NCBI GenBank assembly: GCA_001643675.2
Contig: LSRY02000022.1
Location: 744,001 to 808,000 of the forward strand
DNA from: Monocercomonoides exilis PA203
Taxonomy: Eukaryota > Protista > Preaxostyla
Direction of reading: 5' to 3'
Length of the DNA: 64,000 nt
Shown: positions 22,418 to 64,000 of the stretch, piece by piece
How the letters are laid out: every line of letters starts with the position of its first letter
Position numbering within the stretch: the first letter of the stretch is position 1
Notes under the pieces: generated by a model
Told to the model about the DNA's origin: nothing
The model's input: only the letters and a program-made list of their open reading frames with translations
Databases searched by the model: none
Program-made: the position numbers and the translations under genes

Positions 22418-25400
22418 TCAACAAACAGTCTCTGAAGGCGCGCCAGGTGGAAAGGAAGGGCGAAATGTGTCTTTTGGCGAGTTACTCGAGGAGTCAGATG
22501 CCGATGAAGTGGAGGTGGAAGAAGAAGTCAACAAAGATGATTTACAAGCCGATGAAGAAGATGAATTGAATGAGGAAGAGCAAGATGAACGGGATGAAGA
22601 GGAGGAAGAGGAGGAAGGGGATGAAGGGGATGAAGGGGATGAAGAGGATGAAGAAAAGGAAGAGGATGAAGAGGAGGAAGAAAAGGAAGAGGAAGCGGTT
22701 GTTGCTTGCTTCTCTGATGGAAGCATGTTGCCAACTGACGAGTCCGATGTGATCTCCAGCGCTGCAGACGATGTCGAAGATGGCGTGCTCGCACCAATCG
22801 AAGAAGACGATGAAGAATACTGCGGCAGCGTCGAAGATGATACAAGAGACGAAAAAGAAGAGCTGGGAAAGGACGAACTTGACGACGACGGAGCAAAAGT
22901 CGTGCTGAATGACGACATCTGATGCGAAGACATGATGAACGAAGTCGACGAAATAGATGGAATGAACGACGTCGAGAAATACGAGGCAGACGCTGTTGGA
23001 AGCAAAGAAGACGAGTTGGATGAGGAGGAGGAAGATGAAGAAGACGAAGAAGACGAAGAAGGTGACAGTTGAGAGGAATAGAAATAATGCGATGCACCTA
23101 GAACAGCTGTGGATGGAAGGGATGATGTCGGTGATGAAGGCGAAGGAGAAAACGGAGGAGAGCGCGGAGACACAGGAGACACAGGCGACACTGGTGATGC
23201 AAGCGACACAGGAGAGACAGAAGAAGACGGAGACGGTGAAAGGGGATGGGTGGATGTGTTGGCAACACTCGTGGGCTCAGAAAGTGCATCCAGATGGTGC
23301 AATGCATCGGGACGAGAGCCGAATGCCGCCTCACCTGCCTTTGGGGATGTTGTCGAGCCAAATGGAAGGCACGCCGAAGCAGCCGACACGCTTTGTGTGG
23401 TGGTGTTTGTGGTGTTGCCAGCAGATGACACACTTGCAGCTGATGCCATGTCTGCCTGAACACCACTCGATGCAGATGAACCCGATGATGCTGATGATTG
23501 TGATTCACGAACACAACCAGAGACACCTTCTTCTGTCTCATCTCGTCTGCTCCTTTCTCCTCCATTGCAACCTCTATCCTCCATTTCCGTCTTCCCACAC
23601 CTTCTTCTCCGCCTTTCCTCTTCCTCTTCGTTTTTCTCTTTATCGCCATTCGCATCATCTGCAGATCCCACCGTGTCCATCTGCCCTCCTTCCTTTCCTT
23701 TTCCCTCCACGCTCCTCACTCGAAGCTGTGATGTTGTAGAACGCATCTTTGTCTTCCCTAGCGGAACAATCCCCATGTTCAGCGAAGTGCCATCTCCCAT
23801 GCGCGAAAGATAGGAGAAGGTCTGTGAGCGAACAGATGGTGTGTGGAAAGGGAAGCGCTCCATTCCAACAGGACTATCTGAAGAAGGAGAAAAAGAGAAA
23901 GAATTTTGTTCAGCTGCTGGAATTGTTGAAGATGAGGAATTTGGCGGGTTGAAAGAAGGAGGAGGCGGAAGAGGAAGAGGCGGATACGGAGGCAGTGGCG
24001 GAAGTGCCGGAGGAGCCGGAGGAGCTGAAGGTGCTTGAGGCGCTGGAGAAAAAGAACTTTGAGAGGAGAGCAATTTTTGCTGCGGATGATGCTGAGACAA
24101 AGGAGTTGGCAACTTTCTTGAATCAAACCGCAAATCGCATTTTGACTGCTCATTTCGATCGCTTTCATCCTCTTTCCCCTCTTCCCTCTTCCTTCTTCCT
24201 TCCTTTCCCCCTCTTTTCTCCTTTCTTCTGCCACCAAGACATGACGAATTGCTTTCCTCTTCTTTCTTTTCTTTTCGCTTTTGACGCCTGCCGATGTGTC
24301 CATGCCGAAGGCCCTCGTCCATGTGCTCCGTTCTGCCACCATCTGAATCGCCACCGCGATGCTTGTGTCTGTGTCTGCGTCTGCGTCTGTGCCCATGTCT
24401 GTGTCTGTGTTTGCCCTGATAGGATTTGTGCGAATCCTCAAGACCCCCCAACAATCTGCTGCGCCTACACCTTTTGCTCACACTGCTCGTAGACTGCTTG
24501 CCAATAGAGCAGAACGAAAAAGAAGAAGAGAAAGAAGAACGCGAAATGGTTGTTCCAAAAAAAGAGCTGGGCGAACGAGGAATAGGCAATGGCGAGGAAG
24601 AAATCGAAGAATAAGACGAATGCAACCCTTTCTGATCGCTCTCGTCTCTGCTTGCCCTTTCATCCTTCTCCTTCTTTCTTTTCCCCTTCATTTTTCTTGA
24701 TGAATTCTTTCTCTTTTTCTGGCCATGTGAAGGAAATAGAGAAGTGTGTTTACCTCCCCTCTCGTGTGCCGGAAACCTCACGCTGCTCATTTCCATCTCC
24801 CTTGCACGGCCTCTCTGCTTCTGTCCCTCCAAAACATTTCGCATTATCCCCTCTCCTGTGCTGCCTTCCCCCTTCCCCACACCGGCCACCGATGACGTTG
24901 AAGCCCTGCTGGAATATCCAATCCCCACAGATGGCCCAATAGAATGTGCCTTGCGTTGCTGTTGGCTTATGTGATGCTTCAAGTGCAAATGTCTTCTGCA
25001 ATTGCGATGGCTTCTGTGCAAATGAGGAGATCGATGATGGCTCCGATGGCTTCGATGCGCACGTGATTTCTGCCCCTTACGAACCTTGTGAGCTTCGTGA
25101 GCTTCGTGAGCTTCGTGAGCTTCGTGAGCTTTGTGAGTGTTGTCAGACTTATAAGATTTGTGTGTTTGCTTGGGTCGAGACTCCGTTTGTCTCTTCCTCT
25201 TCGTATGGCTGGATGCTGAACATGAGGAGGAGGTAGCAATGGGAGATGAAGAAGCAGCAGAAAAAGAAGAAGAAGAGGAAGGAGACTTTGGTTGGAGCCT
25301 CGCATTATGCTTGCCAAATGATAACAACGAAGAAGCAGATGATGAAGCTGACAGATGCGTGGTGGGTGTCACAGATGTGCTCGCTGGAGTCACCTGGAAC

Positions 25401-27791
25401 TCCTGCGAAAAGATCGTCTCCAGCTGGTGCCTCTCAATTTGGATGGGTGATGGCCTTTTCGACGGAAGCGGGAGAACTGGAAGTGGAAGAAAGGGAGGCA
25501 CATTGGAGAAGGGAGATGGGTCAGAAGAGGAGGAGGCTACAGAAGAAGATGAAGACGATGACACTGTTGGAGACGACGACGATGATGATGACGAAGATGA
25601 TGATGCAAGAGAAGAAGAGGAAGATGTTGTCACTGACTTCGGAATCTGCATCATCACCTCCAAGTCCAGAAACTTCTGCAGCGAGCTTGTTCCAAATGCC
25701 GAAGAAGACGAAATAGAAAACGAGCGAGCTGATGAGAAAGACGAAGAAGAACGCGAAGAAGAATGTGAATGCGAACCAGAACAGCTTCCGTTCTTCAGCT
25801 CAAACGCCATCGAATCCAGCGAAGACGACCCATTCATCTCTCTTGCCTCCAGTCCATCCATCTTCCGCGGCGTTGCTTGCTCATTCTGATCAAATGCAGA
25901 TTCCGTCATGCTTGCCACTTTTCCTGCTTCCATCCCCTCTCTCTCCTCCTCCTCCTCCTCCTCCTCCTCTCCATCTCTCTCCCCCTCTTTCCCTTTCAAT
26001 TCATTTCCTCTCTCATCTTTCTCCTCCCCTCCATTTCCTTTGCCTTCCACAGCATTCGCTACCGCATCTCTTTTCAGACACAACTCATCCCCTTCTTCCT
26101 CAACTGTTGTCCCCTTCCCCTTTCTTTTCTGCTTTCTCATCTTCCCTCTTTTCAAACAGAAAATCGGGCAAAGCAAACAGAACTTGCTTCGTATAGGAGT
26201 TTCTGCCATCGAACCGCTGTCATCCAAATCACCCTCATCGTCATCATCTTCTTCTTCTCTTCCTTTCGTTCCTGCTCCAATCCCTCTTCTCTTCTCTTCT
26301 TTCTTCTTCACTTCCACTTCCACATCTTCTCCATTCTTATTCCCTTTTCCTTCCCCGTTCTGGTCCAGGATTCCACTTTGTAACTTCACACCCTGCATAT
26401 GTTCCTGCTCAAACTCCTTTTTTCTGCTCCATGCTTCTCCGCCAAGCATCTTCAGCAGCTCATCATCATCATCATCTTCCTCTTCCTCTTCCTCTTTCTC
26501 TTTCTCCTTCTGTCCACTCTCCACAAAGCCACCTGCCGATGATCCCGAGCTTGTGAACATAGGAGGTGTTGATGCAGTTTCCAATGAACACGAAAAAGAT
26601 GAAGACGACCCTGCTGATGATGATGGCAGGGAAGTGTTTGTGAGAGAAAGCCCCAAATGGTCACTCGATTTGACATCCATCTTGTTCTCTTCATCCTTCT
26701 TTTCCTTTTCTTTCTCTTTTTCCTTCTCCTTCTTCCGCAGTTCTTTCGCTGCCTGCCGCATCAATAGCCGCGGTGACATCAGCCTTTTGTTCGATGGCGA
26801 CGAAAACATCACCTCTTCGTTCGCATTGTGCAGCTCCCCCATAAAGTCCTTCATCATCCGCTTGATGTCTGCCTGCCCTCCTTCTCCTTTCCTCTTCCTT
26901 CTTCTTCGCTTCTCGCTTTCTTTCTGCCAGTTCCATCCCCCAAAGTCACCACCCATCCCTGACGAATGCAGTTTTTGTCTTTCTTCGTTCGGCCTGGCTG
27001 TCTCCGATGCTGATGTCGGACTGCCCTTCTTCTTCCCTTTGACTTCATCTCCATCATCATCATCTTTTTCAGTCTCTTCTTCTTTTTCTTCTTCTTTTTC
27101 TTTCCTTCCTTTGTGGTGCACCCTCTTCTTACCCTCTCCATAACAGCTGCTTCCTCCAACCTTCTTCACCTCATCCGAAAACTGCCTGCGAAGATCCAGG
27201 CCAGAAGAGGCGTTGGAAGAAGGTGAAATACGAATGGATGCTGTTGCCGATGATGCTGACTGTTCTTGGCGAGTGGCTGAGGATGCAATGGATAAGGAGG
27301 CGCTTGGGGTATTTTGTGTGTTGGGAGTGTTTATTGAATGAGCAGGAGATGGAAAAGTGGAAGAGGAAGAAGTAGAAGAAGAAGAAGAAGAAGGGTAAAA
27401 GGACTGTGAGACAAGCTGCTGTGACAGGGTCGACGATTGTCTTGTAAATGGAACAAAGTTTGTGTCAAACGAAGTCGTTGATACCGAAGACGGACTCACA
27501 ATGCGCGACGAAGGCGCAGGCAGAACAGACGACTTGTAGCTGCCTGTCGAGTTGTGAGAAGAGGGCGTGATGTTGTTTGTGTGAGATGTGGAGGCAGAGG
27601 TTGTTGCAGATAATGATGATGGACATGATGATGACGAAGAGGATGATTGGGATGACTCGGATGCAGAGCATGTGACAGTGGAAGACGACGCTGTCACGAC
27701 AGACGCCAAAGAGGTGAACGAAGTGAGCGACACACAGCCACCAACAGCTGGCCCAAATGAAGAAGACGTCAAAGCAGCACCACAGCAACCA

Positions 27792-27824
<33 letters not shown>

Positions 27825-30800
27825 GCCAAATACGCCATCACACCAGTGGGAGTTCCAGCAAACGGAGAATATGGCTTCATCTCGCACCCCATCCCCGACA
27901 ACTGCTGCCTCGACAACTCGTTTCTGGTGTGCTGAGTGGACAGAGAGGTCTGTGTGGATGGTGATGAAAAGGCCGATGACTCTGAGCATTCTGATGCACA
28001 TCCACTTTCTCCATCTTCTCTTTCTTCTTTTTCTTCTTCTCCTCTTTTGCTCCTCTTCAAATCCTCTTCTTCTTCCAACCTCTTCCCTTTCCCTCCTTTA
28101 TCCTTTGACGCCTGCGCCTGTGCCTGTGTGGATTCGCTTGATGCCTCACTTGATGGCAAGAGACATGGAGATGCTGTTGAGGAGCATGCAAGTGGATGCA
28201 CCGCTTTTGCTGCTGGATGTTTCGAATTCTTGCCTCCAACAAGACAATTGGAAGACAAAGAAGAAGCAGGCTGGTGCCCATTCATTACCCGCACCCCTGT
28301 CTCCTCTGTCTCCCCTGTCTCCCCCGATGCTTCTCGCCCGGGTGTTTTCGAGTGTGGAATCAGCGAGATCGTGCAGTGCCTCGACCTGTGCGCACTCTCA
28401 ATCTCTGCTGCCACAAGCAGCGGAGGCGCCACCCCATCAGATACACACAGCGACGACAGCCCTGGCAGCACATTCAGAGATGACGACATCGGCGAAAACG
28501 AACACTCAGCACTCAGCGATGCAAACGAGAAAAAGGGAGATGCCGGATGGAAAGGCTGAACAGACGAGGAAGAGACGCTGGATGGCTGATGGGCGTGCTT
28601 GAGCAATGCCGCTGTCGCTATTGATGATGATGATGATGAAGATGAGGATGAGGATGAGGATGATGCTTGTGGTGGGCTGCTTCTTTCAAACAACAACAAC
28701 TCATTTGGCCCTTGCCGCTCCGCAAACTGAGGGTTACTAATCTCCCCAACTTCACATTTCTTCCCACTTTCCGAAGACAAAACACCACCATCATACAGCA
28801 CCATCCCCCTTTCAGACACGCATGATAATCGTGCAGAAGGCACATCGGCCGCTCGAAAAGAACTTGATGAAGAGGAAGAGGAAGTGGAAGTGGAAGTGGA
28901 AGAAGAAGTAGATGAAGGCAGAAACAATGGAACTTCATTCAAAGTGAAAGCTTGTTGCGATTGGCTCTGCTCTCCTTCTCCTTCTCCTTCTCCTTCTCCT
29001 TCTCCTTCTCCTTCTCCTTTCTCTCCCTTCTCTTCCTCCTCCCCCCACTGTTTGTGATGCACAGGATAGATCGGCGTGGAAGGCGCATCCGTACGCAACA
29101 CTGATCCCTGCGAGCTCACCTCAAAACATGCCTTCCCGCTCAATGATCCAAAAGACAATTTTTTTCTCTTTCTTCTTCTCTTCCTTTCTCTTCCTCTTCC
29201 TTTTCCTCTTCCTCTCTTTCTCCCTTGTCCATCCCCCCTTTTTTTTTGCCCTGCTCTCTGATGTTTTCCTGCACAGCCCATCTGTCTCTCCAAAGGCCTT
29301 ACGTCTGCTCCTGACTCCATGCTTGCTGCTCTCCCGACTCCCATCCTCATCCCCATCGCTCCGCATTGTCGAACGTGAATAGCAGTCCGAATCTGAATCT
29401 GAATCCGAATTCGAATCAGAGTGTGTTTGAGAAGAAGATGAGGAAGAAAAAGAGGAAGAAGGAGAACTAGCCAGATAATCAGAATATTTCATCTTTTCAC
29501 TCCCATCCTGCTCATCTCCTCTTCCCCTCTTTTCTGTTTCTCTCCCCTCTTCGCATTCCTTCTTCTTCTTCTTCTTCTTCTCCCCAACTCTCCTTCTTCT
29601 CCTCTTCCCACCCTTCCCACCCTTTTGTCCCTTCCTCACTTCTGCCCTGTTGATCTTCCGCTCCAGCTCCAAATACACTTCAAATGACCCGCTTCTCAGT
29701 GCATCCACCTGCCTCAGCTTCAGATTGATCAGTCCAGATGACACAGAGAATGACGATGAAAACGATGAAGATGAGGAGGACGCTGGAGAAGACGATGAAA
29801 AAGAAGAAGAAGGCGACGGCGCCGAAAAAGACAAGGAACATGAGGAAGAAAAGGAAGCAGTTGGAGAAGCAAAGGAAGTTGATGAATATGAGCCACTGGT
29901 CGATGCAGATGAAATAGACGTTGGAGAATCTGATCTGCCGGAAGAGGAAGAACAAGTATAAGACGGTGAAGAAGAGTTCGTCTCTCCATTTCCACCCTCT
30001 CTGCTTTCCTCTTCTTCTTCTGTCTCCCTGCCATTCTCCCTTCCCTTCTCCTTTTCACTCTCCTTCTCCTTCTCCTTCTCTCTCCTGCCTCCTGGAAGCA
30101 TCTCTCCCTTAACTGTGACCACCTGACGCACTAACGGCGACAGAGGAGCCAAAGAGCCCGAAAGCATAGGCAGCAAAGATGCTGATGATGAAGACGAATT
30201 CGTCGGCGAATATTTCTTCTGCAACAGTGTCGGAGAAAGCAGCACCGACGACCCGCTCACAGGAAACGCCTGCGAATAGCGTGTTGTCGAGTTCATGTAC
30301 TCCGAATTTTGTGAGTGCAGCACAGATGCAGATGCAGATGCAGATGCAGAAGCTGTTGCGATTGCTGAGACTGACGCTGATGCTGATGCAGACACAGCCA
30401 AAGTAGCTGATGACGAAGAAGGCAACGACGCAGCAGAAGGAGACACCGATGAGACTGTCATCCCATGTGCACATGCCAATGCAGAGGCAGAGGCAGGGGA
30501 TGAAGCAGGGGCTGAAGCAGAGGTGGGGGCAGTTGCTGTTGCCGTTGCCGTTGTTGTGAATGTTGATGTGTGGGTGTGTGAAGAGGTGCGAGTGGGAGAG
30601 GAAGAGAAAGAGGAAGAGGAAGAGGAAGGAGACGCAGCCACAAGAAGAGGAGAGAGAGGCGGTGCATGTGTCGGAAGGGGAGGTGGAGAAAATGAAAGGG
30701 GTTGGTCACCAAGCTCAGGAGTTTCCGAGCAGCCTGGCAAAGGATTGTCTGAAGCAGAAAGATGCGCATTCTGTTGTTGAAGCAACCGAAGTGGCAAAGA

Positions 30801-33800
30801 AGAGGAGGAAGAGGAGGAAGAATTAGACAACAATAGCGTTGCGCTTTTGACCAAACCAGGCCCATCCCCTTCGCGTCCGATGTCTGTCTCTGCTTTGGCT
30901 TCTGCATCTGTCTCTGCCCCTGTTTCTGCTGCTAGCGTGCTCACAAACTGTGGGTTGTCCTTCGGAAAAGGAGAGGGCGGAAGAGATTCCTTCTCAAACC
31001 GATGCTCGCTCGCAAACAGCTGCTCCGCAGGCACAATTATGCTCATCCGCTTCGCTATGTTCCTGGGGGAACAAGATGACGCAGCCGTCTCAGTTCCATG
31101 TGAACGCTCATCAGAGCAGTTGTGCCTGCGATGCTGCCTGTTGACTCCCTCTGAATGATGATGATGATGATGGTTAGACGGCAATTGTGGCTGCTGCCGA
31201 GATTGTTGTCGAGATTGTTGCTGCAGCATTTGCTGGGACTTGTGGCACTGTTTGCTGCCTTGATTGCTGTGATGGCTGTGGTGTTGGTGATGAAGGTGAT
31301 GATGACGATGATGCAATTGATGTGGATGACAATCTTGATGAGCGCGTGCATGTTCATTGCCTGTGTTCATTTTCGTCTTTGACTTCAATTTCTCTTTCTG
31401 TGGTGATGGACCTGTTCCAGTTTCTGTTTCATGTCGCTGTTGTGTTGCTTTCAGAGCGCGTTGTTCGCATGAACAAGTCGAAGAAGAAGAAGAAGATGAT
31501 GATGATGAAGATGATGATGAGGAGGAGGAGAAGGCAAAGGGAGAAAGCAAGATTCCATCACCTTCTTCATGATCCATCTCCTTTCCTTCCTCATCGCATT
31601 CTTCCCTTCCATCATCAACAACCTCATTGACAGCCTCATCATCCTTTTCGTCTTCCTCTTCTCTTTCACATTCTCTTGCTCCCTCGTCCAGCTTGTTCCC
31701 ACACTCCTGATCAGGCATCGTCGCCTCCATCGTCGTCTCCATCGCCATTGGTATCGAAATTGGCATCGGAATCGTTGCAGTCGTTGCCTTCTGCTCGTCC
31801 TGTCTCAGAGTATTCAGCGAATGTGTCACAGTCTGCTGTAGAGACTCCAACCGCGGGATCGAAATCTGTGCCACGCTGTACGACTCCACAGGCCCAGATG
31901 CCCCGCCACTTTGCGCATCGCGCTCATGCAGCACAACTGCAGACTGCTCTTCCTCCGCCTTGCACCTCCCGATCCTGCACTTGGCAGACCCCGGAAGCGT
32001 CGATTCCAACGAGGAATCGTCTGAACATGCAGCTGTGATCGAGGTGAGGGTGGTGGATGTGTTGGTAACAGAAGTCGTGTTCGTGTTAATGTTGGCAGCA
32101 TTGCTGGATGCTGCTGTGGATGTTGATGTGGAGGAAGCCAGAGAATGCTTGGAAGCTAAAGAAGTAGAAGTAGAAGTAGAAGAAGAAGAAGAAGAAGAAG
32201 AAGAAGAAGAAGAAGAAGAAGAAGAAGAAGAAGAAGAAGAAGAATGAGAAGGGGAAGAATAAGTTAAATTAGAAGAAGCAGAAGAGGAGGAGGAGAAGGA
32301 AGAAGAAGAAGAAGAAGAAGAAGAAGAAGATGATGATGATGATGATGAAAAAGTCGGAGAATATATATAATTCAAATGTTTGGATGAACCTGAGTGGTTG
32401 TGAGTGTGTAAATGCGAATGTGAATGGCTGTGGGAGTGTGCGTGGATATGGGAATGATGCAGAAGATGTGCACAGTCGCGATGTGAGTGGAAGACATTGT
32501 TACGGGCAGAGGATTTACACGAAGGAATAGATGGAATTGAAGAAGTTGAAGAAGAAAACAATTGCACAATTGATGCTGACAGTTGAGGGTGCTCACAGCA
32601 AGGTGTCAAGCATTCTACTACCATAAGCACAAACAGAGCACATGTCGCATCTTCGCAATAGGAGCATACGCAATTGCAGCTCACTCCATCATCGCCTCCA
32701 GAAATCTGTTGCATCTTTGAGGAATCAAATCCGTGCAAAGTGGTTGAATGCTCAGATAAGCTCGGAGCAGCTGCAAAAGACAAGGGAACGAGAGGTATGG
32801 CAGCTGAAGAAGAAGAAGTAGTAGTAGAAGAAGAAGAAGAAGGTAAAGAAGAAGAAGAAGAAGATGATGATGATGATGAGAAAGAAACTGAAGAGAATGA
32901 GCCTGGGCTCCCCATCAGCGGCAGCAGAGGAACAGGTGACATGACAGGAGAAGTGAGTGTCGTTGAAAGCGATTGTCTCCTGACAGATCCTGCCTCAGCA
33001 GAAGGCGTAAGAAACGGGGAAAGGATCGAGCGGTTTGACACAGGCGACAGAGCGGTGGGGGTATACTGCGAGGAAAGCGATGAATGCAGAGAAAACAGTG
33101 TCTGTGCAGGAGGAGAAAGAGGATGCAGAAGAGTAAGCGGAGATGCAGAGGGAACCTGGCAAGAGCTGCGAGGAGTCGAAGAATTGTTCGACGAGGCTGA
33201 AGAAGGAAGAGAAGTCTGTCCAGAGGAAGAAGAGGAGGAAGAAGAAAAAGGAATTGAGGCAGAGATAGACTGTGCATTGCACGAGGAAGCAGAAGAGCGA
33301 GCCGATAGATGTAAGTTCGGCTCGTGTGATATTACCAGCGAAGGCACAAGACGCGGCGATGACAGCACAAAAGAAGGTGTCAGACGCAAACTGCTTGCCG
33401 GTCCTATGCTCCGAAGCTTGAACTGATCGTCTGCCATGCCAGGCATGCTGCATGCAACGTAGCATGAATCTGGAACTGGATGTTCAGCAGGAATAAGCCG
33501 ACAGTTGCTACAGCGTTTTGCCTCGCTTGTGGCGGCCTCGTAAGCTTTGTCTGACCACAGGAGCAGCTGCTTCAGAACACGTACCAATTTTCCAACCAGA
33601 TTCTCGCGATCATCATCCAAAGTGCTCTTGAACTCCTCATTTCTTCTAAGTTCCTGTTTTTTTTCGGAAACAAGCTCACTTACTGTACTATCAATACATG
33701 GAGTAATTTTTCGATAGTCTTGGGCCTCCTTCAACATCTTCTCTGTACGTTCATGCAGTTTTTCCACCTCTTCTTCCGATATCCCTTCCCATGTAACCCC

Positions 33801-40414: not shown

Positions 40415-40552
40415 TGTTTTATTCTTTGAAAAAACAACATTTTCATCAACAATATACCATTATTAATTAATTTTAGAAGTCTTAATGGAAAGCTGTAACC
40501 CATACTCAAGTGCAACGATAAGTGAAAAAGATCATGAAAAGAAAAAAAAAAG

Positions 40553-46259: not shown

Positions 46260-46472
46260 TTACCCATTAACTTTTTCCATCAACTCATCTAACAACTCAT
46301 CACTTTCAATAAGCTTTCTCCTCAATATCTTAATCAACTTCTTCTGTTTCTCAGATACATGTTCGTTGTAATACTTAGTTTCTTCCTTACGTTTTTCCTG
46401 AAACTGTTTAATTTGTTTTTGTTGAGCCGCTTTCGCTTCTTCCACAGTTGCGTATATCTTCTTCCGACCCAT
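46260..46472 (-). CDS. Mirror copy of the 70-aa basic ORF (2 aa differences)
   Basis: ...SDELLDELMEKVNG versus ...SDESLDELMENVNG in the left copy. Confidence 0.6.
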   Translation of the reverse strand: MGRKKIYATVEEAKAAQQKQIKQFQEKRKEETKYYNEHVSEKQKKLIKILRRKLIESDELLDELMEKVNG

Positions 46473-48800: not shown

Positions 48801-48907
48801 TTATCGTTGCACTTGAGTATGGGTTACAGCTTTCCATTAAGACTTCTAAAATTAATTAATAATGGTATATTGTTGATGAAAATGTTGTTTTTTCAAAGAA
48901 TAAAACA

Positions 48908-51921: not shown

Positions 51922-52682
51922 TTTCATGAAAATTAAATTCGATAAACGCGAGTTCAAATGTTACATAGGAATTCAGCAATTAAAATCTGGATAAGAATAC
52001 AAAAACAATGTGGAAAAAATGCCACTATACTTTTCAAAAATTATAATTCTTTGTGATGATTTGATGGAGAAAGAAATTAACTTCTATGAGCAATATTTTT
52101 TTCAACTTGATATATGGTTGTATTTTTTCTTATTTTCAAAAGTTCAAAATGAACGAATTTTTCTTTTCATTAATCAACATTGAAGAAAAAAGTGTATTAT
52201 TTGAGTCAAGAGCAATTACAAACTTGTATTTTTTCAAATTAGATTCTTCCTTTTTTTTACGTTGATTATAAAAGAAAAATTGATCGCTTCACAATTTAGA
52301 TAAACAAATGCTTTGTTCAAGGATGAGAAAAGCAAAAATACAAAAGCATGAAATATCAATAAAATCTGAAAAGCAAAAAACAAATAAATATGGGTGGTTA
52401 TTTTTGAAAACATAACTTTTTTCGGGGTGATTATTTTCCAAAATAGTTGATTTTTGGAAATAAATTTGTTAACAAATGCACAATTCATGACGATTGTGTT
52501 AATAATTTGTGTTTTTTCTCAAATAAAGATGATGATTTCTTTTATAAGTTTTTTCCTTTTTCAGTGTTCTTTTGTTGATATTCAAGTGAAATTTTCGAAC
52601 TGAAATTTTAGAATGAAAAAATATGATTTCAAAAATAATCGCCCATATTCTCAATGATTTTTGAAAAAAATATTAATTTCAT

Positions 52683-53823
52683 TTTCCTCTTATCTAAACA
52701 TAACACAATCCATATATGAAATCTTCGAAAAGTTCTACTTCTATCTCTTCATATAGATTTCATCGTATCTCTTTCAGCTTCACTTCCTTCTATTCATTTT
52801 CCGTCTTTTCTTTCAATCTTTCTCATATTTCTTTGAAAGGGAGTTACCATCAATCATGATGTCTCTCTCACTGGATTCAAATACTTCCTCCAAATTAGCA
52901 TCAATTGCTCCACTTTTCAGCGAATCCTCAATCTGCGCATCTGAGCGATGAAATGATATACCTAATGTTTCAATGCATTCATCACATGTTTCTCAACAAT
53001 TATCTTTCCTTGCTCGATTCAAACGAGAAATATCTCCAATAAGCCCAGTAAATGCTTCATTTCACAATCAACAACATCGAAATAAATCAAAAATTGATGG
53101 AGCAATCTTCCAACACAAGCAATACTTTTGCTTTTCTCTCTTTTTTATTTCTCTCTTCCGATACACACATTTCATCAGATATTCCAGTTCTCTTTTTGCT
53201 TCTCTTTCAAAACTCTACTCATTCACGTTGACATCTTCCAAACTCCTTTTTTCAAAAAATCAACTAAATAAAAATACCCAAGCCAATTGATAGGCAAGAT
53301 GAGTGAGGATGAAATGTACCTGATTATTCTTGAAAATCTCTTTGATGTTATCTGGGTTTGATCTTTTTCAAATCCCTTATCAAAAAATGAGAATGATATT
53401 TGAAAATGTCAAAAATGAAAGAAAAATTGTCACACTGTATTTCTAATATTTTTCAATTCCATCAAGATAATTTCAATTTTCTTTCTTCTTTGCTTTCCAT
53501 TTTGTTCAAAACATTAAACAGATGGTACAAAACACGTAATTCAAGTGAATCCAGCGCAGAGTTGCGACTAAGAGAAACATTGCATTGACATGGATCACTC
53601 ACTTGCTCTCCCTTCTTTTTCTTATTTCTTTTCATTTCATGAAGGACATCGAACATTTCATCCTATAATAGATTTCTATTCTTCTTTATTCATTTCATCG
53701 TTCATTGAATTCTTTTCAAATATTATCTACTTCTTTTCTCTTCATTTCAATCTAACAAACCAGAAAAATAAATCTATTCAAAATAATAAAAAATATCCGA
53801 ACATCAAGAAATCATACACAACA
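52683..53823 (-). pseudogene. Mirror copy of the decayed hypothetical-family gene
   Basis: Reverse complement of ~35500-36640. Confidence 0.45.
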
Positions 53824-54808
53824 GCAACTGCATTCTCGTGATCTAATTTGTGTCGTTTCTTTCCAGCATTTTAGCAATGGATGTCAATCAGAAAGTGCTG
53901 ATAAAAAGTTATTCAAACTTTATGCAAGAAAGCTTTTTAAAAGAAAATAAAATAGGTAGAAAATAATTAAAATTGACAAAAATAAATGCTCTTAAACCGG
54001 TTTTAATTGCATTTTTGTTTTCAATCCATATGTGTCGAGAAACCTTGAAAATGATTTGATCATTTGCGTAAGTGAGTATTAATCAATGTGAAAATTTCAA
54101 AAACAGAAAAATATTTCTATAATATTGTTAAATATTGTTTGTTGATTAAGTGTGAACCAATTGTTTTTGATTATTACATTGTTTCACTAAAATACAGAAA
54201 GTTCAAAATGCCAAAAAAGTGAAATTCAACAGGTATGAGTCAAAACTCTGATATAAATGGATGCAAATGTTCGCTGAACGTTTATCTTCATGCTAAAATT
54301 CATTATTATTAGAAAACGATTCATTTTCACATTCGAAGGAAAATGATAAAAATAATTAAAAAAACTCACAAAAAAAAAGCTTTATTTATGAAAAACATAA
54401 CATAATATTTAATGTTGATGCATTTTTGGCTTCGACATGTAAAAAATGTTTTTTTGATAAATGCAAGACTTTCAGGTCACAATTGAAAAAAACTGGTTTT
54501 TCTTAAAAACACTGCCTTTTATTTAAAATTACTGGGGAATCTTGAAATAAATAAAACATTTTGAAATATTTTTTTATTTCACAATTTATCTAATAATTCA
54601 AAATTATGTCAATTATAATAAATTGTTTTTTGAAAAACATAAAATTTCCTGTTTATTGAGTTTTATTATAACTGAGCAACACTCCATTTAAATGCATTGA
54701 CTTTTATAGTCATAATGCCCAAAGAAAAAAAGAAATAAAAATTAACCCTTTACTAATTAATTTATTTATAATTTTTGCGTTTTATTTCATTGAGACGAGT
54801 AGAGTCTC

Positions 54809-57800
54809 GCTGTTAGTTCACGGCAACGGCACATTACACAAACGGAAGAAGTAAGGTGGCAGTCTCATTTTGAGGTGTTTGGCTCGGAACTGGAAGGATT
54901 GAAAAGTGAATTTGAGTTAAAATATTTATTTTATGTTCCGGAGGGAAGATATATTTTACTGAGATGGTTTTTAAGGAATTGCAAACCAAACAATGGAATG
55001 AAGTATCAAGGGTTTACGAAATTTTGCGAACGTTTTCTGCCAACAATTAAAGAAGAAGATATTCACTTCATTTTTGAGCTTTTGCGTTTGTATATCATTG
55101 TTACTTTATTCCACTTCAGTAAATTTAATGATAAAATTAAATTATCGATTTTCAACTGTTTGACTTCAGGAAGCGAAAAGGATGAGCTAATATATTTTGA
55201 TTCGTTTTATTTTTTTATTGAGTTGTGGGCGGCATATGAAGGACAAATCCTTGGAAAAATCTTGTATGACAATTATCATTTTATTTAAATAAAGTATTCC
55301 TGAAATGCACCTTCAATGCGTTTGCATGTTTATAAACATTTTATAAAAAATATTTTGTTGAATAATTATATTTGTTAAACAAAATTTATCGATTTCTTGA
55401 TTATTTAGACAAAAAATATATAACGCCTTGTATACAATTCTTGCGTGTGTGGAACGCTGCGAGCTTAGAAGTAAAAACATGCCAATCAACAGCGTGATTA
55501 CGTCGATGGCGTATATCTTTGGAGGGGTTACATGGGAAGGGATATCGGAAGAAGAGGTGGAAAAACTGCATGAACGTACAGAGAAGATGTTGAAGGAGGC
55601 CCAAGACTATCGAAAAATTACTCCATGTATTGATAGTACAGTAAGTGAGCTTGTTTCCGAAAAAAAACAGGAACTTAGAAGAAATGAGGAGTTCAAGAGC
55701 ACTTTGGATGATGATCGCGAGAATCTGGTTGGAAAATTGGTACGTGTTCTGAAGCAGCTGCTCCTGTGGTCAGACAAAGCTTACGAGGCCGCCACAAGCG
55801 AGGCAAAACGCTGTAGCAACTGTCGGCTTATTCCTGCTGAACATCCAGTTCCAGATTCATGCTACGTTGCATGCAGCATGCCTGGCATGGCAGACGATCA
55901 GTTCAAGCTTCGGAGCATAGGACCGGCAAGCAGTTTGCGTCTGACACCTTCTTTTGTGCTGTCATCGCCGCGTCTTGTGCCTTCGCTGGTAATATCACAC
56001 GAGCCGAACTTACATCTATCGGCTCGCTCTTCTGCTTCCTCGTGCAATGCACAGTCTATCTCTGCCTCAATTCCTTTTTCTTCTTCCTCCTCTTCTTCCT
56101 CTGGACAGACTTCTCTTCCTTCTTCAGCCTCGTCGAACAATTCTTCGACTCCTCGCAGCTCTTGCCAGGTTCCCTCTGCATCTCCGCTTACTCTTCTGCA
56201 TCCTCTTTCTCCTCCTGCACAGACACTGTTTTCTCTGCATTCATCGCTTTCCTCGCAGTATACCCCCACCGCTCTGTCGCCTGTGTCAAACCGCTCGATC
56301 CTTTCCCCGTTTCTTACGCCTTCTGCTGAGGCAGGATCTGTCAGGAGACAATCGCTTTCAACGACACTCACTTCTCCTGTCATGTCACCTGTTCCTCTGC
56401 TGCCGCTGATGGGGAGCCCAGGCTCATTCTCTTCAGTTTCTTTCTCATCATCATCATCATCATCTTCTTCTTCTTCTTTACCTTCTTCTTCTTCTTCTAC
56501 TACTACTTCTTCTTCTTCAGCTGCCATACCTCTCGTTCCCTTGTCTTTTGCAGCTGCTCCGAGCTTATCTGAGCATTCAACCACTTTGCACGGATTTGAT
56601 TCCTCAAAGATGCAACAGATTTCTGGAGGCGATGATGGAGTGAGCTGCAATTGCGTATGCTCCTATTGCGAAGATGCGACATGTGCTCTGTTTGTGCTTA
56701 TGGTAGTAGAATGCTTGACACCTTGCTGTGAGCACCCTCAACTGTCAGCATCAATTGTGCAATTGTTTTCTTCTTCAACTTCTTCAATTCCATCTATTCC
56801 TTCGTGTAAATCCTCTGCCCGTAACAATGTCTTCCACTCACATCGCGACTGTGCACATCTTCTGCATCATTCCCATATCCACGCACACTCCCACAGCCAT
56901 TCACATTCGCATTTACACACTCACAACCACTCAGGTTCATCCAAACATTTGAATTATATATATTCTCCGACTTTTTCATCATCATCATCATCATCTTCTT
57001 CTTCTTCTTCTTCTTCTTCTTCTTCCTTCTCCTCCTCCTCTTCTGCTTCTTCTAATTTAACTTATTCTTCCCCTTCTCATTCTTCTTCTTCTTCTTCTTC
57101 TTCTTCTTCTTCTTCTTCTTCTTCTTCTTCTACTTCTACTTCTACTTCTTTAGCTTCCAAGCATTCTCTGGCTTCCTCCACATCAACATCCACAGCAGCA
57201 TCCAGCAATGCTGCCAACATTAACACGAACACGACTTCTGTTACCAACACATCCACCACCCTCACCTCGATCACAGCTGCATGTTCAGACGATTCCTCGT
57301 TGGAATCGACGCTTCCGGGGTCTGCCAAGTGCAGGATCGGGAGGTGCAAGGCGGAGGAAGAGCAGTCTGCAGTTGTGCTGCATGAGCGCGATGCGCAAAG
57401 TGGCGGGGCATCTGGGCCTGTGGAGTCGTACAGCGTGGCACAGATTTCGATCCCGCGGTTGGAGTCTCTACAGCAGACTGTGACACATTCGCTGAATACT
57501 CTGAGACAGGACGAGCAGAAGGCAACGACTGCAACGATTCCGATGCCAATTTCGATACCAATGGCGATGGAGACGACGATGGAGGCGACGATGCCTGATC
57601 AGGAGTGTGGGAACAAGCTGGACGAGGGAGCAAGAGAATGTGAAAGAGAAGAGGAAGACGAAAAGGATGATGAGGCTGTCAATGAGGTTGTTGATGATGG
57701 AAGGGAAGAATGCGATGAGGAAGGAAAGGAGATGGATCATGAAGAAGGTGATGGAATCTTGCTTTCTCCCTTTGCCTTCTCCTCCTCCTCATCATCATCT

Positions 57801-60800
57801 TCATCATCATCATCTTCTTCTTCTTCTTCGACTTGTTCATGCGAACAACGCGCTCTGAAAGCAACACAACAGCGACATGAAACAGAAACTGGAACAGGTC
57901 CATCACCACAGAAAGAGAAATTGAAGTCAAAGACGAAAATGAACACAGGCAATGAACATGCACGCGCTCATCAAGATTGTCATCCACATCAATTGCATCA
58001 TCGTCATCATCACCTTCATCACCAACACCACAGCCATCACAGCAATCAAGGCAGCAAACAGTGCCACAAGTCCCAGCAAATGCTGCAGCAACAATCTCGA
58101 CAACAATCTCGGCAGCAGCCACAATTGCCGTCTAACCATCATCATCATCATCATTCAGAGGGAGTCAACAGGCAGCATCGCAGGCACAACTGCTCTGATG
58201 AGCGTTCACATGGAACTGAGACGGCTGCGTCATCTTGTTCCCCCAGGAACATAGCGAAGCGGATGAGCATAATTGTGCCTGCGGAGCAGCTGTTTGCGAG
58301 CGAGCATCGGTTTGAGAAGGAATCTCTTCCGCCCTCTCCTTTTCCGAAGGACAACCCACAGTTTGTGAGCACGCTAGCAGCAGAAACAGGGGCAGAGACA
58401 GATGCAGAAGCCAAAGCAGAGACAGACATCGGACGCGAAGGGGATGGGCCTGGTTTGGTCAAAAGCGCAACGCTATTGTTGTCTAATTCTTCCTCCTCTT
58501 CCTCCTCTTCTTTGCCACTTCGGTTGCTTCAACAACAGAATGCGCATCTTTCTGCTTCAGACAATCCTTTGCCAGGCTGCTCGGAAACTCCTGAGCTTGG
58601 TGACCAACCCCTTTCATTTTCTCCACCTCCCCTTCCGACACATGCACCGCCTCTCTCTCCTCTTCTTGTGGCTGCGTCTCCTTCCTCTTCCTCTTCCTCT
58701 TTCTCTTCCTCTCCCACTCGCACCTCTTCACACACCCACACATCAACATTCACAACAACGGCAACGGCAACAGCAACTGCCCCCACCTCTGCTTCAGCCC
58801 CTGCTTCATCCCCTGCCTCTGCCTCTGCATTGGCATGTGCACATGGGATGACAGTCTCATCGGTGTCTCCTTCTGCTGCGTCGTTGCCTTCTTCGTCATC
58901 AGCTACTTTGGCTGTGTCTGCATCAGCATCAGCGTCAGTCTCAGCAATCGCAACAGCTTCTGCATCTGCATCTGCATCTGCATCTGTGCTGCACTCACAA
59001 AATTCGGAGTACATGAACTCGACAACACGCTATTCGCAGGCGTTTCCTGTGAGCGGGTCGTCGGTGCTGCTTTCTCCGACACTGTTGCAGAAGAAATATT
59101 CGCCGACGAATTCGTCTTCATCATCAGCATCTTTGCTGCCTATGCTTTCGGGCTCTTTGGCTCCTCTGTCGCCGTTAGTGCGTCAGGTGGTCACAGTTAA
59201 GGGAGAGATGCTTCCAGGAGGCAGGAGAGAGAAGGAGAAGGAGAAGGAGAGTGAAAAGGAGAAGGGAAGGGAGAATGGCAGGGAGACAGAAGAAGAAGAG
59301 GAAAGCAGAGAGGGTGGAAATGGAGAGACGAACTCTTCTTCACCGTCTTATACTTGTTCTTCCTCTTCCGGCAGATCAGATTCTCCAACGTCTATTTCAT
59401 CTGCATCGACCAGTGGCTCATATTCATCAACTTCCTTTGCTTCTCCAACTGCTTCCTTTTCTTCCTCATGTTCCTTGTCTTTTTCGGCGCCGTCGCCTTC
59501 TTCTTCTTTTTCATCGTCTTCTCCAGCGTCCTCCTCATCTTCATCGTTTTCATCGTCATTCTCTGTGTCATCTGGACTGATCAATCTGAAGCTGAGGCAG
59601 GTGGATGCACTGAGAAGCGGGTCATTTGAAGTGTATTTGGAGCTGGAGCGGAAGATCAACAGGGCAGAAGTGAGGAAGGGACAAAAGGGTGGGAAGGGTG
59701 GGAAGAGGAGAAGAAGGAGAGTTGGGGAGAAGAAGAAGAAGAAGAAGAAGGAATGCGAAGAGGGGAGAGAAACAGAAAAGAGGGGAAGAGGAGATGAGCA
59801 GGATGGGAGTGAAAAGATGAAATATTCTGATTATCTGGCTAGTTCTCCTTCTTCCTCTTTTTCTTCCTCATCTTCTTCTCAAACACACTCTGATTCGAAT
59901 TCGGATTCAGATTCAGATTCGGACTGCTATTCACGTTCGACAATGCGGAGCGATGGGGATGAGGATGGGAGTCGGGAGAGCAGCAAGCATGGAGTCAGGA
60001 GCAGACGTAAGGCCTTTGGAGAGACAGATGGGCTGTGCAGGAAAACATCAGAGAGCAGGGCAAAAAAAAGGGGGATGGACAAGGAGAAAGAGAGGAAGAG
60101 GAAAAGGAAGAGGAAGAGAAAGGAAGAGAAGAAGAAAGAGAAAAAATTGTCTTTTGGATCATTGAGCGGGAAGGCATGTTTTGAGGTGAGCTCGCAGGGA
60201 TCAGTGTTGCGTACGGATGCGCCTTCCACGCCGATCTATCCTGTGCATCACAAACAGTGGGGGGAGGAGGAAGAGAAGGGAGAGAAAGGAGAAGGAGAAG
60301 GAGAAGGAGAAGGAGAAGGAGAAGGAGAAGGAGAGCAGAGCCAATCGCAACAAGCTTTCACTTTGAATGAAGTTCCATTGTTTCTGCCTTCATCTACTTC
60401 TTCTTCCACTTCCACTTCCACTTCCTCTTCCTCTTCATCAAGTTCTTTTCGAGCGGCCGATGTGCCTTCTGCACGATTATCATGCGTGTCTGAAAGGGGG
60501 ATGGTGCTGTATGATGGTGGTGTTTTGTCTTCGGAAAGTGGGAAGAAATGTGAAGTTGGGGAGATTAGTAACCCTCAGTTTGCGGAGCGGCAAGGGCCAA
60601 ATGAGTTGTTGTTGTTTGAAAGAAGCAGCCCACCACAAGCATCATCCTCATCCTCATCCTCATCTTCATCATCATCATCATCAATAGCGACAGCGGCATT
60701 GCTCAAGCACGCCCATCAGCCATCCAGCGTCTCTTCCTCGTCTGTTCAGCCTTTCCATCCGGCATCTCCCTTTTTCTCGTTTGCATCGCTGAGTGCTGAG

Positions 60801-61480
60801 TGTTCGTTTTCGCCGATGTCGTCATCTCTGAATGTGCTGCCAGGGCTGTCGTCGCTGTGTGTATCTGATGGGGTGGCGCCTCCGCTGCTTGTGGCAGCAG
60901 AGATTGAGAGTGCGCACAGGTCGAGGCACTGCACGATCTCGCTGATTCCACACTCGAAAACACCCGGGCGAGAAGCATCGGGGGAGACAGGGGAGACAGA
61001 GGAGACAGGGGTGCGGGTAATGAATGGGCACCAGCCTGCTTCTTCTTTGTCTTCCAATTGTCTTGTTGGAGGCAAGAATTCGAAACATCCAGCAGCAAAA
61101 GCGGTGCATCCACTTGCATGCTCCTCAACAGCATCTCCATGTCTCTTGCCATCAAGTGAGGCATCAAGCGAATCCACACAGGCACAGGCGCAGGCGTCAA
61201 AGGATAAAGGAGGGAAAGGGAAGAGGTTGGAAGAAGAAGAGGATTTGAAGAGGAGCAAAAGAGGAGAAGAAGAAAAAGAAGAAAGAGAAGATGGAGAAAG
61301 TGGATGTGCATCAGAATGCTCAGAGTCATCGGCCTTTTCATCACCATCCACACAGACCTCTCTGTCCACTCAGCACACCAGAAACGAGTTGTCGAGGCAG
61401 CAGTTGTCGGGGATGGGGTGCGAGATGAAGCCATATTCTCCGTTTGCTGGAACTCCCACTGGTGTGATGGCGTATTTGGC

Positions 61481-61513
<33 letters not shown>

Positions 61514-64000
61514 TGGTTGCTGTGGTGCTGCTTTGACGTCTTCTTCATTTGGGCCAGCTGTTGGTGGCTGTGTGTCGCTCACTTCGTTCACCTCTTTGGC
61601 GTCTGTCGTGACAGCGTCGTCTTCCACTGTCACATGCTCTGCATCCGAGTCATCCCAATCATCCTCTTCGTCATCATCATGTCCATCATCATTATCTGCA
61701 ACAACCTCTGCCTCCACATCTCACACAAACAACATCACGCCCTCTTCTCACAACTCGACAGGCAGCTACAAGTCGTCTGTTCTGCCTGCGCCTTCGTCGC
61801 GCATTGTGAGTCCGTCTTCGGTATCAACGACTTCGTTTGACACAAACTTTGTTCCATTTACAAGACAATCGTCGACCCTGTCACAGCAGCTTGTCTCACA
61901 GTCCTTTTACCCTTCTTCTTCTTCTTCTTCTACTTCTTCCTCTTCCACTTTTCCATCTCCTGCTCATTCAATAAACACTCCCAACACACAAAATACCCCA
62001 AGCGCCTCCTTATCCATTGCATCCTCAGCCACTCGCCAAGAACAGTCAGCATCATCGGCAACAGCATCCATTCGTATTTCACCTTCTTCCAACGCCTCTT
62101 CTGGCCTGGATCTTCGCAGGCAGTTTTCGGATGAGGTGAAGAAGGTTGGAGGAAGCAGCTGTTATGGAGAGGGTAAGAAGAGGGTGCACCACAAAGGAAG
62201 GAAAGAAAAAGAAGAAGAAAAAGAAGAAGAGACTGAAAAAGATGATGATGATGGAGATGAAGTCAAAGGGAAGAAGAAGGGCAGTCCGACATCAGCATCG
62301 GAGACAGCCAGGCCGAACGAAGAAAGACAAAAACTGCATTCGTCAGGGATGGGTGGTGACTTTGGGGGATGGAACTGGCAGAAAGAAAGCGAGAAGCGAA
62401 GAAGAAGGAAGAGGAAAGGAGAAGGAGGGCAGGCAGACATCAAGCGGATGATGAAGGACTTTATGGGGGAGCTGCACAATGCGAACGAAGAGGTGATGTT
62501 TTCGTCGCCATCGAACAAAAGGCTGATGTCACCGCGGCTATTGATGCGGCAGGCAGCGAAAGAACTGCGGAAGAAGGAGAAGGAAAAAGAGAAAGAAAAG
62601 GAAAAGAAGGATGAAGAGAACAAGATGGATGTCAAATCGAGTGACCATTTGGGGCTTTCTCTCACAAACACTTCCCTGCCATCATCATCAGCAGGGTCGT
62701 CTTCATCTTTTTCGTGTTCATTGGAAACTGCATCAACACCTCCTATGTTCACAAGCTCGGGATCATCGGCAGGTGGCTTTGTGGAGAGTGGACAGAAGGA
62801 GAAAGAGAAAGAGGAAGAGGAAGAGGAAGATGATGATGATGATGAGCTGCTGAAGATGCTTGGCGGAGAAGCATGGAGCAGAAAAAAGGAGTTTGAGCAG
62901 GAACATATGCAGGGTGTGAAGTTACAAAGTGGAATCCTGGACCAGAACGGGGAAGGAAAAGGGAATAAGAATGGAGAAGATGTGGAAGTGGAAGTGAAGA
63001 AGAAAGAAGAGAAGAGAAGAGGGATTGGAGCAGGAACGAAAGGAAGAGAAGAAGAAGATGATGACGATGAGGGTGATTTGGATGACAGCGGTTCGATGGC
63101 AGAAACTCCTATACGAAGCAAGTTCTGTTTGCTTTGCCCGATTTTCTGTTTGAAAAGAGGGAAGATGAGAAAGCAGAAAAGAAAGGGGAAGGGGACAACA
63201 GTTGAGGAAGAAGGGGATGAGTTGTGTCTGAAAAGAGATGCGGTAGCGAATGCTGTGGAAGGCAAAGGAAATGGAGGGGAGGAGAAAGATGAGAGAGGAA
63301 ATGAATTGAAAGGGAAAGAGGGGGAGAGAGATGGAGAGGAGGAGGAGGAGGAGGAGGAGGAGAGAGAGGGGATGGAAGCAGGAAAAGTGGCAAGCATGAC
63401 GGAATCTGCATTTGATCAGAATGAGCAAGCAACGCCGCGGAAGATGGATGGACTGGAGGCAAGAGAGATGAATGGGTCGTCTTCGCTGGATTCGATGGCG
63501 TTTGAGCTGAAGAACGGAAGCTGTTCTGGTTCGCATTCACATTCTTCTTCGCGTTCTTCTTCGTCTTTCTCATCAGCTCGCTCGTTTTCTATTTCGTCTT
63601 CTTCGGCATTTGGAACAAGCTCGCTGCAGAAGTTTCTGGACTTGGAGGTGATGATGCAGATTCCGAAGTCAGTGACAACATCTTCCTCTTCTTCTCTTGC
63701 ATCATCATCTTCGTCATCATCATCGTCGTCGTCTCCAACAGTGTCATCGTCTTCATCTTCTTCTGTAGCCTCCTCCTCTTCTGACCCATCTCCCTTCTCC
63801 AATGTGCCTCCCTTTCTTCCACTTCCAGTTCTCCCGCTTCCGTCGAAAAGGCCATCACCCATCCAAATTGAGAGGCACCAGCTGGAGACGATCTTTTCGC
63901 AGGAGTTCCAGGTGACTCCAGCGAGCACATCTGTGACACCCACCACGCATCTGTCAGCTTCATCATCTGCTTCTTCGTTGTTATCATTTGGCAAGCATAA
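54809..64000 (+). CDS. Giant low-complexity protein, right-arm copy, large exon open from ~55409 to the window end
   Basis: Likely acceptor TTTAG ending at 55408, then ...QKIYNALYTILACVERCELR... It reads through the junction as RAKKRGMDKEKERK...KEKKLSFGSLSGK. It is missing from the ORF track, consistent with no stop before 64000. Confidence 0.75.

Follow-up and report, generated by a model that had tools for sequence, protein, structure and literature searches.

The window, that is, the whole 64,000-nucleotide stretch of Monocercomonoides exilis DNA that was analysed, contained a palindrome of at least 38.7 kb that, on the basis of contig depth, was probably real and not a mere assembly product. 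We considered it fairly likely that this was a real inverted duplication, made recently when the diverged terminal inverted repeats (TIRs) of an already dead primase-helicase element folded back on each other or through an equivalent template switch, the element contributing passive homology only.

Self-BLAST of the window gave a single inverted match, 25305-43104 against 46222-64000 (17,804 columns, 99.76% identical, E=0), and an alignment of the arms agreed with it. Thus, the two near-identical inverted arms of at least 17.7 kb that had been described from the letters alone were indeed there. However, their near-perfect identity stopped at 43031 and 46295, and the sequences were diverged further inward. 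Accordingly, the arms were delimited as follows.

25305 to 43031, plus strand: left arm, reaching at least to 25305.
46295 to 64000, minus strand: right arm, the mirror copy, running off the window end; listed short-read contigs over 46486-55400 were at about twice (some at three times) the spacer depth.

Over these 17.7 kb, 2 substitutions and 14 indels separated the arms, and 13 of the indels were in homopolymer runs. In the stretch compared with short reads, the longer homopolymer was the short-read version at 7 of 10 arm indels and probably at one more, the other two being without a call. Therefore, the indel differences were probably consensus errors, and the arms were nearly identical. 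As the sequence-only reading had noticed, the arms carried a giant gene and a dead transposon.

22418 to 33896, minus strand: left copy of the giant Ser-rich host ORF, interrupted by homopolymer indels at 29159-29239.
55428 to 64000, plus strand: right copy of this ORF, with 2,857 codons open up to the window end.
39077 to 40331, plus strand: broken DDE_Tnp_4 transposase remnant, with a second copy in the right arm at about 48991-50250, minus strand.

The right copy of the giant ORF lacked the indels that split the left one, and these were likely consensus errors as well. The Ser-rich ORF had no Pfam match, and no second full-length record of the giant protein was found at E<=1e-20, a result with no bearing on arm extent. 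A six-frame Pfam scan of 34000-43403 detected DDE_Tnp_4 only, although divergent capsids may escape Pfam. The window held no telomeric array; CCCTAA occurred there only as two short doublets.

Since almost all arm differences were homopolymer errors, the palindrome could also be an assembly artefact produced by fold-back chimeric long reads, by exit through the wrong repeat or by mirror-wise joining of two genuine but non-adjacent arm copies. A mirrored single copy, however, predicts equal depth of arms and spacer. Short reads came from four runs (X1-X4) of one sample, which was maybe the assembly's own source. In the two deepest runs, X1 and X2, all 11 listed arm contigs were at 1.9-3.3 times the depth of the spacer contigs, where the 8 longest pieces were listed per run and contig depth is not copy number. 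Namely, among the listed contigs of X1 the spacer was at 34.3 and 35.4, the arms at 67-104 (4 contigs) and other loci at a median of 31.5 (n=8); the corresponding values in X2 were 90.9, 191-303 (7 contigs) and 106 (n=22). Spacer depth was thus that of other single loci, the single-copy level in X1 and X2 being anchored by only three spacer contigs plus the other-locus contigs. GC content did not explain the arm excess, because diverged paralog contigs of arm-like composition were at 31-32 in X1. In the shallow runs X3 and X4 the comparison with other loci gave p=0.11 and 0.21; the arm-to-spacer ratio was 1.3 in X4, and X3 had no listed spacer contig. The comparison of arm and spacer depth proposed earlier therefore came out at about 2:1 in X1 and X2, and it speaks for two real copies of the arm rather than for a pure artefact.

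A ratio of 2:1 would also be expected if two diploid alleles had been joined head to head around a hemizygous spacer. Other-locus depths in X2 were bimodal, with 7 of the 22 contigs also near 200, which is compatible with such a joint and counts against the fold-back reading. However, M. exilis was reported to be monoploid by SNP frequencies and FISH (PMC6759080), and on that report the joining of alleles, raised by the sequence-only reading, was hardly credible.

The left junction was covered by one exact 265-letter contig at single-copy depth, which included 43060-43253 and extended 71 letters past the start of the stretch compared. The right junction, located in a very high-copy repeat, was crossed by no contig among those listed; we did not count this as absence, but it is what an artefact would also give. 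At 46308 the arm-specific letter reached a depth of 34.3 out of 15,761 in X1 and was absent from X2-X4; such a loss can come from the simplification of contigs in a high-copy repeat, although this is not proof. An X2 contig over 54567-55400 differed by one letter, while the X3 and X4 contigs did not. The sole arm-to-arm substitution within this interval was 55249, and a correspondence between the two, which would speak against an artefact, was suggestive only. Moreover, a 3.26-kb spacer with independently diverged end repeats would not be made by chimeric reads. Overall, an artefact appeared unlikely.

The single-copy spacer between the arms measured 3,263 bp. The earlier description of about 3 kb of unique DNA filled by one gene was thus right in length, but the gene was broken and diverged inverted repeats were present at both spacer ends, so that inverted homology existed at the boundary of spacer and arm.

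43032 to 43270, plus strand: left inverted repeat (putative TIR), its diverged inner portion, with 83 of 108 positions identical over 43032-43139 and a second gapped block.
45900 to 46294, minus strand: right inverted repeat (putative TIR), its diverged inner portion, exceeding the left one by about 150 bp.
42459 to 42701, no strand: imperfect 49-bp internal inverted repeat (E=1e-5), near the presumed outer TIR end.
42854 to 43066, plus strand: 70-aa basic ORF starting with MGRKK, in the left repeat and pointing inward; high-copy in the genome, with a depth peak at the mirror site.
46260 to 46472, minus strand: mirror 70-aa ORF in the right repeat, its 3' end differing from the left one at 43032/46294 and 43054/46272.

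Inward of the arms, the repeats were identical at 29 of 32 positions over 43032-43063 and at 54 of 76 over 43064-43139 (77% in total). A second, weaker gapped block, approximately 43156-43270 against 45900-46015, had a score of 50 that was reached by 0 of 500 shuffles. Identity therefore fell from arm to gene in steps of 100%, 91%, 71% and about 65%. The 3'-end differences between the two 70-aa ORFs indicated that the mirror ORF predated the duplication; in Pfam this ORF had a sub-threshold match only. Short-read contigs showed that other family copies joined regions 43032-43270 and 45900-46294 on opposite strands. These contig joints, together with depth, suggested that the repeats may be TIRs in the other copies too, and they looked like the TIRs of a dispersed, decayed element of about 4 kb. 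A hairpin end of the element was considered but found no support in folding of the whole region, which was not significant (z=-1.4).

The same steps in identity could mark where arm-to-arm gene conversion fades in an older palindrome with homogenised arms. The arm identity of about 99.99% was also the level that conversion would keep, as it does in mammalian Y palindromes. However, the diverged part was short and coincided with a genome-wide repeat family, and the arms carried remnants of decayed transposons, for whose upkeep no reason was visible. Additionally, such duplications were reported to arise in culture in Dictyostelium stocks and to be unstable near the inversion point (PMC2643946). 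We considered long-term homogenisation to be rather improbable.

The spacer gene itself was the following.

43404 to 45817 (2,414 bp), plus strand: Prim-Pol/SF3 primase-helicase pseudogene, NrS-1-like, annotated 'Poxvirus D5', with 3 in-frame stops and 1 frameshift.

The palindrome axis (44663) indeed lay next to the gene centre (44610), but the exact centring noticed earlier was owed to the symmetric inverted repeats, the apparent element TIRs, that flank the gene. The lesions were TAA at 44799, a frameshift near 45101-45107, TGA at 45500 and TAA at 45692. The stop at 45692 was present in exact short-read contigs of X1, X2 and X4, and the stop letters at 44799 and 45502 had residual depth in X1 only. 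A genetic code in which TAA and TAG stand for Gln was rejected, since the standard code left long ORFs open and CAA stood at 44799 in family contigs. Thus, this copy of the primase-helicase is dead. Two private changes (46308 and 46419), unlike the family majority, were common to both arms, and therefore the arms were copied after the decay. Decay of the gene preceded by a long time the copying, or the last homogenisation, of the arms.

The family to which this pseudogene belonged was better preserved elsewhere. Among 13 distinct paralogs retrieved, one was full length with all motifs checked, and the pseudogene was 89% and 78% identical to it. The N-terminal Prim-Pol domain, with DxD and GxH motifs, had Atlas matches of 0.95-0.96 to Prim-Pol/PriCT clusters; residues D69 and H107 were kept in at least 90% of 56 aligned family rows, and Pfam detected Prim-Pol in only one of these rows. 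The C-terminal SF3 helicase (PF19263) was found in 52 of the 56. The structure model of a paralog had a pLDDT of 90.7; an earlier model built from 8 rows (pLDDT 52) was unusable. The best match to the C-terminal half of the family was the NrS-1 phage primase-helicase (PDB 6k9c, 6k9e, 6lrb; sequence E=5e-24, fold E about 1e-18), which differed in being only 18% identical, the window copy moreover being a pseudogene. Full-length relatives were present in Streblomastix and in metagenomes, and searches of metagenome and viral contigs for the DNA around relatives found no locus. The short contigs of the relatives (14 of 15 listed were at most 5.2 kb, 11 of 15 at most 4.5 kb) were discarded as a sign of small elements because short contigs were usual.

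Since the family kept its Prim-Pol and SF3 motifs, including one full-length paralog, and the element seemed to hold little else, the family might have had an active role. The primase-helicase of the intact paralog would load at the repeats in trans and displace a strand, and the repeats would then pair and prime copying of the flank. However, this was a single case, in which the repeats were 23-35% diverged and the gene was dead; there was no amplification (2:1), and host repair alone would account for the geometry. We took such a role to be very unlikely. Transposase-driven alternative transposition on sister chromatids was suggested by the abundance of TIR elements and DDE genes in the region. 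Its probability seemed slighter still, because the switch was within the repeats, inside a small ORF and not at an element end, and because the element, about 4.3 kb long and holding a large ORF plus two tiny ones, encoded neither transposase nor integrase.

The fold-back reading that we preferred could have proceeded as follows. An element of about 4.3 kb (TIR, gene, TIR) would have inserted and then decayed. A long time afterwards, single-stranded DNA might have been exposed on one side by a break or a stalled fork, and there the two TIRs would anneal into a stem whose loop contained the gene. DNA synthesis starting from a primer in the outer TIR (outward of 43032/46294) would then have copied the other flank, and replication could have converted the hairpin to arm-spacer-arm, replacing the original flank on one side. 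Breakage and healing, or else a second switch, would have resolved the outer end beyond the window. Whether fold-back or another template-switch route operated cannot be told from sequence. The earlier proposal that a TIR-bearing replicase element nucleated the duplication was thus partly retained: the repeats lay at the turn-round and were a likely seed, but a replicase role did not fit a long-dead pseudogene. The alternative in which the element served as the centre or origin of a palindromic amplicon was not borne out, as a depth of about 2:1 meant no amplification.

Tetrahymena rDNA forms a palindrome that is seeded by short inverted repeats; it is programmed and highly amplified, its repeats are short and perfect, and its spacer is tiny. 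By contrast, no rRNA or other Rfam match was present here. Human inverted duplications were reported to have a normal-copy spacer with a median of 3,428 bp and, at 3 of 21 junctions, inverted repeats that were 82-95% identical (PMC3907307). They resembled our case in the inverted arms, the single-copy spacer of about 3 kb (here 3,263 bp) and the diverged inverted mobile-element repeats; our host, however, was a monoploid protist, and both repeats appeared to be ends of one element. In yeast, divergent Alu inverted repeats separated by as much as 30 kb and with up to 25% divergence were described as annealing in single-stranded DNA and giving palindromic chromosomes (PMC10164571). The repeats of the window, 3.3 kb apart and 23% diverged, were inside this range, but the yeast system, as described there, was engineered and ended in dicentrics, whereas ours was a standing structure. 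Leishmania linear amplicons were reported to have inverted duplications at repeats that are mostly extinct SIDER retroposons (PMC4028189), and likewise involved dead mobile elements as passive inverted repeats in a protist. Unlike those extrachromosomal, selected and amplified molecules, our palindrome had a depth of about 2:1, with the gene product on a contig of about 1.4 Mb. Dictyostelium Ax3/Ax4 was reported to carry a large inverted duplication of chromosome 2 (PMC2643946), similarly of ordinary genes in a cultured protist lineage; that duplication was far larger and had a different central structure.

Polinton-like viruses, Mavericks/Polintons and virophages, described as 15-30 kb with capsid and integrase genes (PMC10120064, PMC3671162), shared with our element the primase-helicase gene, putative TIRs and dispersed copies in a metamonad genome. 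However, our element is only about 4.3 kb, the six-frame Pfam scan of 34000-43403 gave no capsid, integrase or pPolB gene, and even divergent capsids would have no room between the repeats; it may be an internally deleted derivative. Transpovirons and Tlr1 are likewise small helicase-encoding elements without a capsid, but they were reported to have a superfamily 1 helicase and, in transpovirons, 6-8 genes (PMC3671162); in our element Prim-Pol was combined with superfamily 3, and only SF3-type matches were found.

The palindrome-forming mechanism itself is well known, and the surprise is moderate. If real, the structure would give an oxymonad example, natural and resolved to the base, of fold-back duplication between repeats with about 23% divergence, the seed being both ends of a single dead virus-derived element. 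A further caution would be that the genes of this region are doubled in a model amitochondriate. A bolder proposal, which we consider quite improbable, is that a minimal self-replicating element, so far undescribed, exists in oxymonads (TIR with the 70-aa ORF, Prim-Pol/SF3 gene, TIR; no integrase or capsid), that its repeats recurrently fold chromosomes back, possibly helped in trans by the primase-helicase of the family, and that it would thereby centre many large palindromes and be a driver of segmental duplication in this genome. Of more lasting interest is the dispersed TIR/primase-helicase family of about 4 kb, annotated so far only as 'putative Poxvirus D5 protein'.

Self-comparison of the window yielded a single long inverted alignment, pairing 25305-43104 with 46222-64000 at 99.76% identity over 17,804 columns, and thus the large palindrome described in the sequence-only reading was present. 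Its length of 38.7 kb was a minimum since the right arm continued beyond the window. Over 25305-43031, the arms differed by 2 substitutions, at 32862 (inside a GAA/GAT array) and 34075, and by 14 indel events, of which 13 fell in homopolymer runs and the other in a GAA array. Inward of 43032, arm identity dropped to 29/32 and then 54/76 positions, and a second gapped inverted block (approximately 43156-43270 against 45900-46015) had a score reached by 0 of 500 shuffles. The arms carried a broken DDE_Tnp_4 gene and a Ser-rich ORF that matched no Pfam family. The spacer was indeed single-copy (3,263 bp) and held one primase-helicase gene, but this gene was broken and the repeats at the spacer ends had diverged. 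The features of the spacer and its borders were as follows:

43404-45817, primase-helicase pseudogene, read with X at breaks, matching an 804-aa paralog
42854-43066, 70-aa ORF of the left repeat, directed inward
46260-46472, 70-aa ORF of the right repeat, directed inward

The spacer gene was 89% identical to the 804-aa paralog over residues 1-569 and 78% over residues 569-802. Its frame was interrupted by stops (44799, 45500, 45692) and by a candidate frameshift near 45101-45107. Among contigs from four short-read DNA runs of one sample (X1-X4), the stop at 45692 was contained in exact contigs of X1, X2 and X4, and those at 44799 and 45500 had residual depths of 80 and 65 in X1 only. The closest proteins were M. 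exilis paralogs named 'putative Poxvirus D5 protein' (9 of 16 matches, 69-89% identical); unnamed proteins from metagenomes and Streblomastix strix came next. The family combines a Prim-Pol with an SF3 helicase. PF19263 was found in 52 of 56 aligned relatives and the Pfam Prim-Pol in only one; the N-terminal part had Atlas matches to Prim-Pol/PriCT clusters (0.95-0.96, family agreement flagged as mixed), and a structure predicted from a paralog (pLDDT 90.7) matched NrS-1, ASFV PrimPol and phage primase-polymerases. The 13 distinct paralogs retrieved sat on contigs of 10 different sizes, and only one was full length with all motifs checked; the family is dispersed and mostly decayed. Full-length relatives (750-900 aa; proteins P0014-P0017 and P0049-P0198) also formed a broad family in metagenomes. 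They had no name in the clusters consulted, one of which, at 90%, had 110 members.

The 3' ends of the two 70-aa ORFs differed, so each repeat already contained the ORF when the arms became equal. In X2, summed contig depth, which gives no copy number, was mostly 1,000-3,600 over the gene, 15,000-24,000 over the 70-aa ORF and about 100 at single loci, showing that the repeat was far commoner than the gene. Moreover, other-locus contigs linked 43188 with 45984 and 43287 with 46185, each time across opposite strands, which is the pattern that two variants of a single terminal repeat, one on the left and one on the right, would give. We infer an element of about 4.3 kb, a gene between terminal inverted repeats (TIRs), with a presumed outer boundary at about 42450-42560. 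The palindrome had been described as centred on the gene; no more than about 50 bp did separate its axis (44663) from the centre of the gene, but the symmetric repeats of the element explain this. The element differed from Polintons/PLVs in size, capsid and integrase, as these are treated in the relevant part of PMC10120064, and from transpovirons in helicase type, according to the corresponding part of PMC3671162. It may have arisen from such elements by deletion, or it may be minimal in its own right.

All four runs contained the sequence as contigs, and depth was compared over 43060-55400, with 8 pieces listed per run. Among these pieces, X1 had two spacer contigs, at 34.3 and 35.4, and arm contigs (four, all exact) at 67-104, against eight other-locus contigs with a median of 31.5 (p=0.008); in X2 the spacer was at 90.9 and seven arm contigs at 191-303, against 22 other-locus contigs at a median of 106 (p=0.002). 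The shallow runs gave p=0.21 (X3) and p=0.11 (X4, arm/spacer 1.3). Thus, the comparison of arm with spacer depth that the sequence-only reading had proposed put the arms higher in both deep runs. A single copy mirrored by the assembler would give a 1:1 ratio, so two arm copies probably exist, and an assembly artefact was improbable, even though no contig among those listed for X1-X4 crossed the right junction, 7 of the 22 other-locus contigs in X2 were also near 200 and the runs were not mutually independent. Contigs at about 3x spacer depth at 46628-46830 and 52619-53927 (and their left-arm mirror sites) suggested a third near-identical copy of these segments elsewhere. Short repeats at 47287-47345 and 52616-52648 had a very high copy number and many loose ends and probably represent the termini of MITE families; the left-arm counterpart of one of them, 36674-36936, had 34-bp TIRs.

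At 7 of the 10 arm indels within 43060-55400, and probably at an eighth, short-read contigs carried the longer run, so the true arms are likely almost identical. The frameshift in the left copy of the giant Ser-rich ORF, outside 43060-55400, was probably a consensus error of the same kind. Likewise, the portion of PMC8767320 on a nanopore assembly of the species reported poorer polishing in multi-copy regions, the same kind of error as the inter-arm differences. M. exilis is reported to be monoploid, judged by SNP frequencies and FISH, in the relevant section of PMC6759080.

Elsewhere in the window, an element at 9217-10739 had 466-bp inverted repeats (99.6%) and enclosed a smaller one (9693-10123) with TA-flanked short TIRs; these had no ORF and were probably nested non-autonomous transposons. 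Adjoining it, the element at 10760-12968 had an AT-rich core of 1.2 kb without a credible ORF and inverted repeats of 482 bp (99.8%). The minus strand carried a decayed retroelement (17900-21300), presumably DIRS-like, with an RVT_1 match and a downstream ORF resembling a tyrosine recombinase tail (no Pfam match), and an intact 531-aa gene (15417-17012) whose product has a pair of ubiquitin-like domains and, at the C-terminus, a RING finger. A DDE_1 (pogo-like) transposase gene lay at 4869-6382 and a DDE_Tnp_4 fragment at 1-621. CCCTAA at 6663 and 6785 formed only short doublets and was rejected as a telomeric array.

Decay amounted to 11-22% for the gene, at the protein level, and to at least 23% for the inner repeats, whereas the arms differed by about 0.01% and had private changes at 46308 and 46419 in common. 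These comparisons place the copying, or the last homogenisation, long after the death of the element. An active nucleating role for the replicase, as the sequence-only reading had suggested, was therefore very improbable with so late a copying and a gene interrupted by three stops. Our favoured reading, held with somewhat better than even confidence, was a real and recent inverted duplication seeded passively by the dead element. By the simplest route, the two repeats would anneal within a single-stranded stretch, synthesis primed from their outer portion would copy one flank, and the loop would be left as the single-copy spacer. The Tetrahymena rDNA palindrome and Y-palindrome conversion serve as comparison systems. 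Human inverted duplications had the same geometry in the relevant part of PMC3907307, where the spacer median was 3,428 bp and 3 of 21 junctions carried inverted repeats of 82-95% identity; in yeast, repeat spacing of <=30 kb and divergence of <=25% permit fold-back, according to PMC10164571. Protist parallels appeared in parts of PMC4028189 and PMC2643946.

In the literature searched, we found no description of the palindrome or the element: a search on Monocercomonoides and Polintons gave a single review, the main text of PMC8767320 lacked the words 'palindrom' and 'inverted' (its four supplements could bear on this), and the genus was absent from the main text of PMC10120064. Neither of the two other TIR elements, with near-perfect 466- and 482-bp repeats, centred a large palindrome in the window, so there is no sign here that the primase family plays a special part. 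As far as tested, the palindrome belongs to the fold-back inverted duplications.
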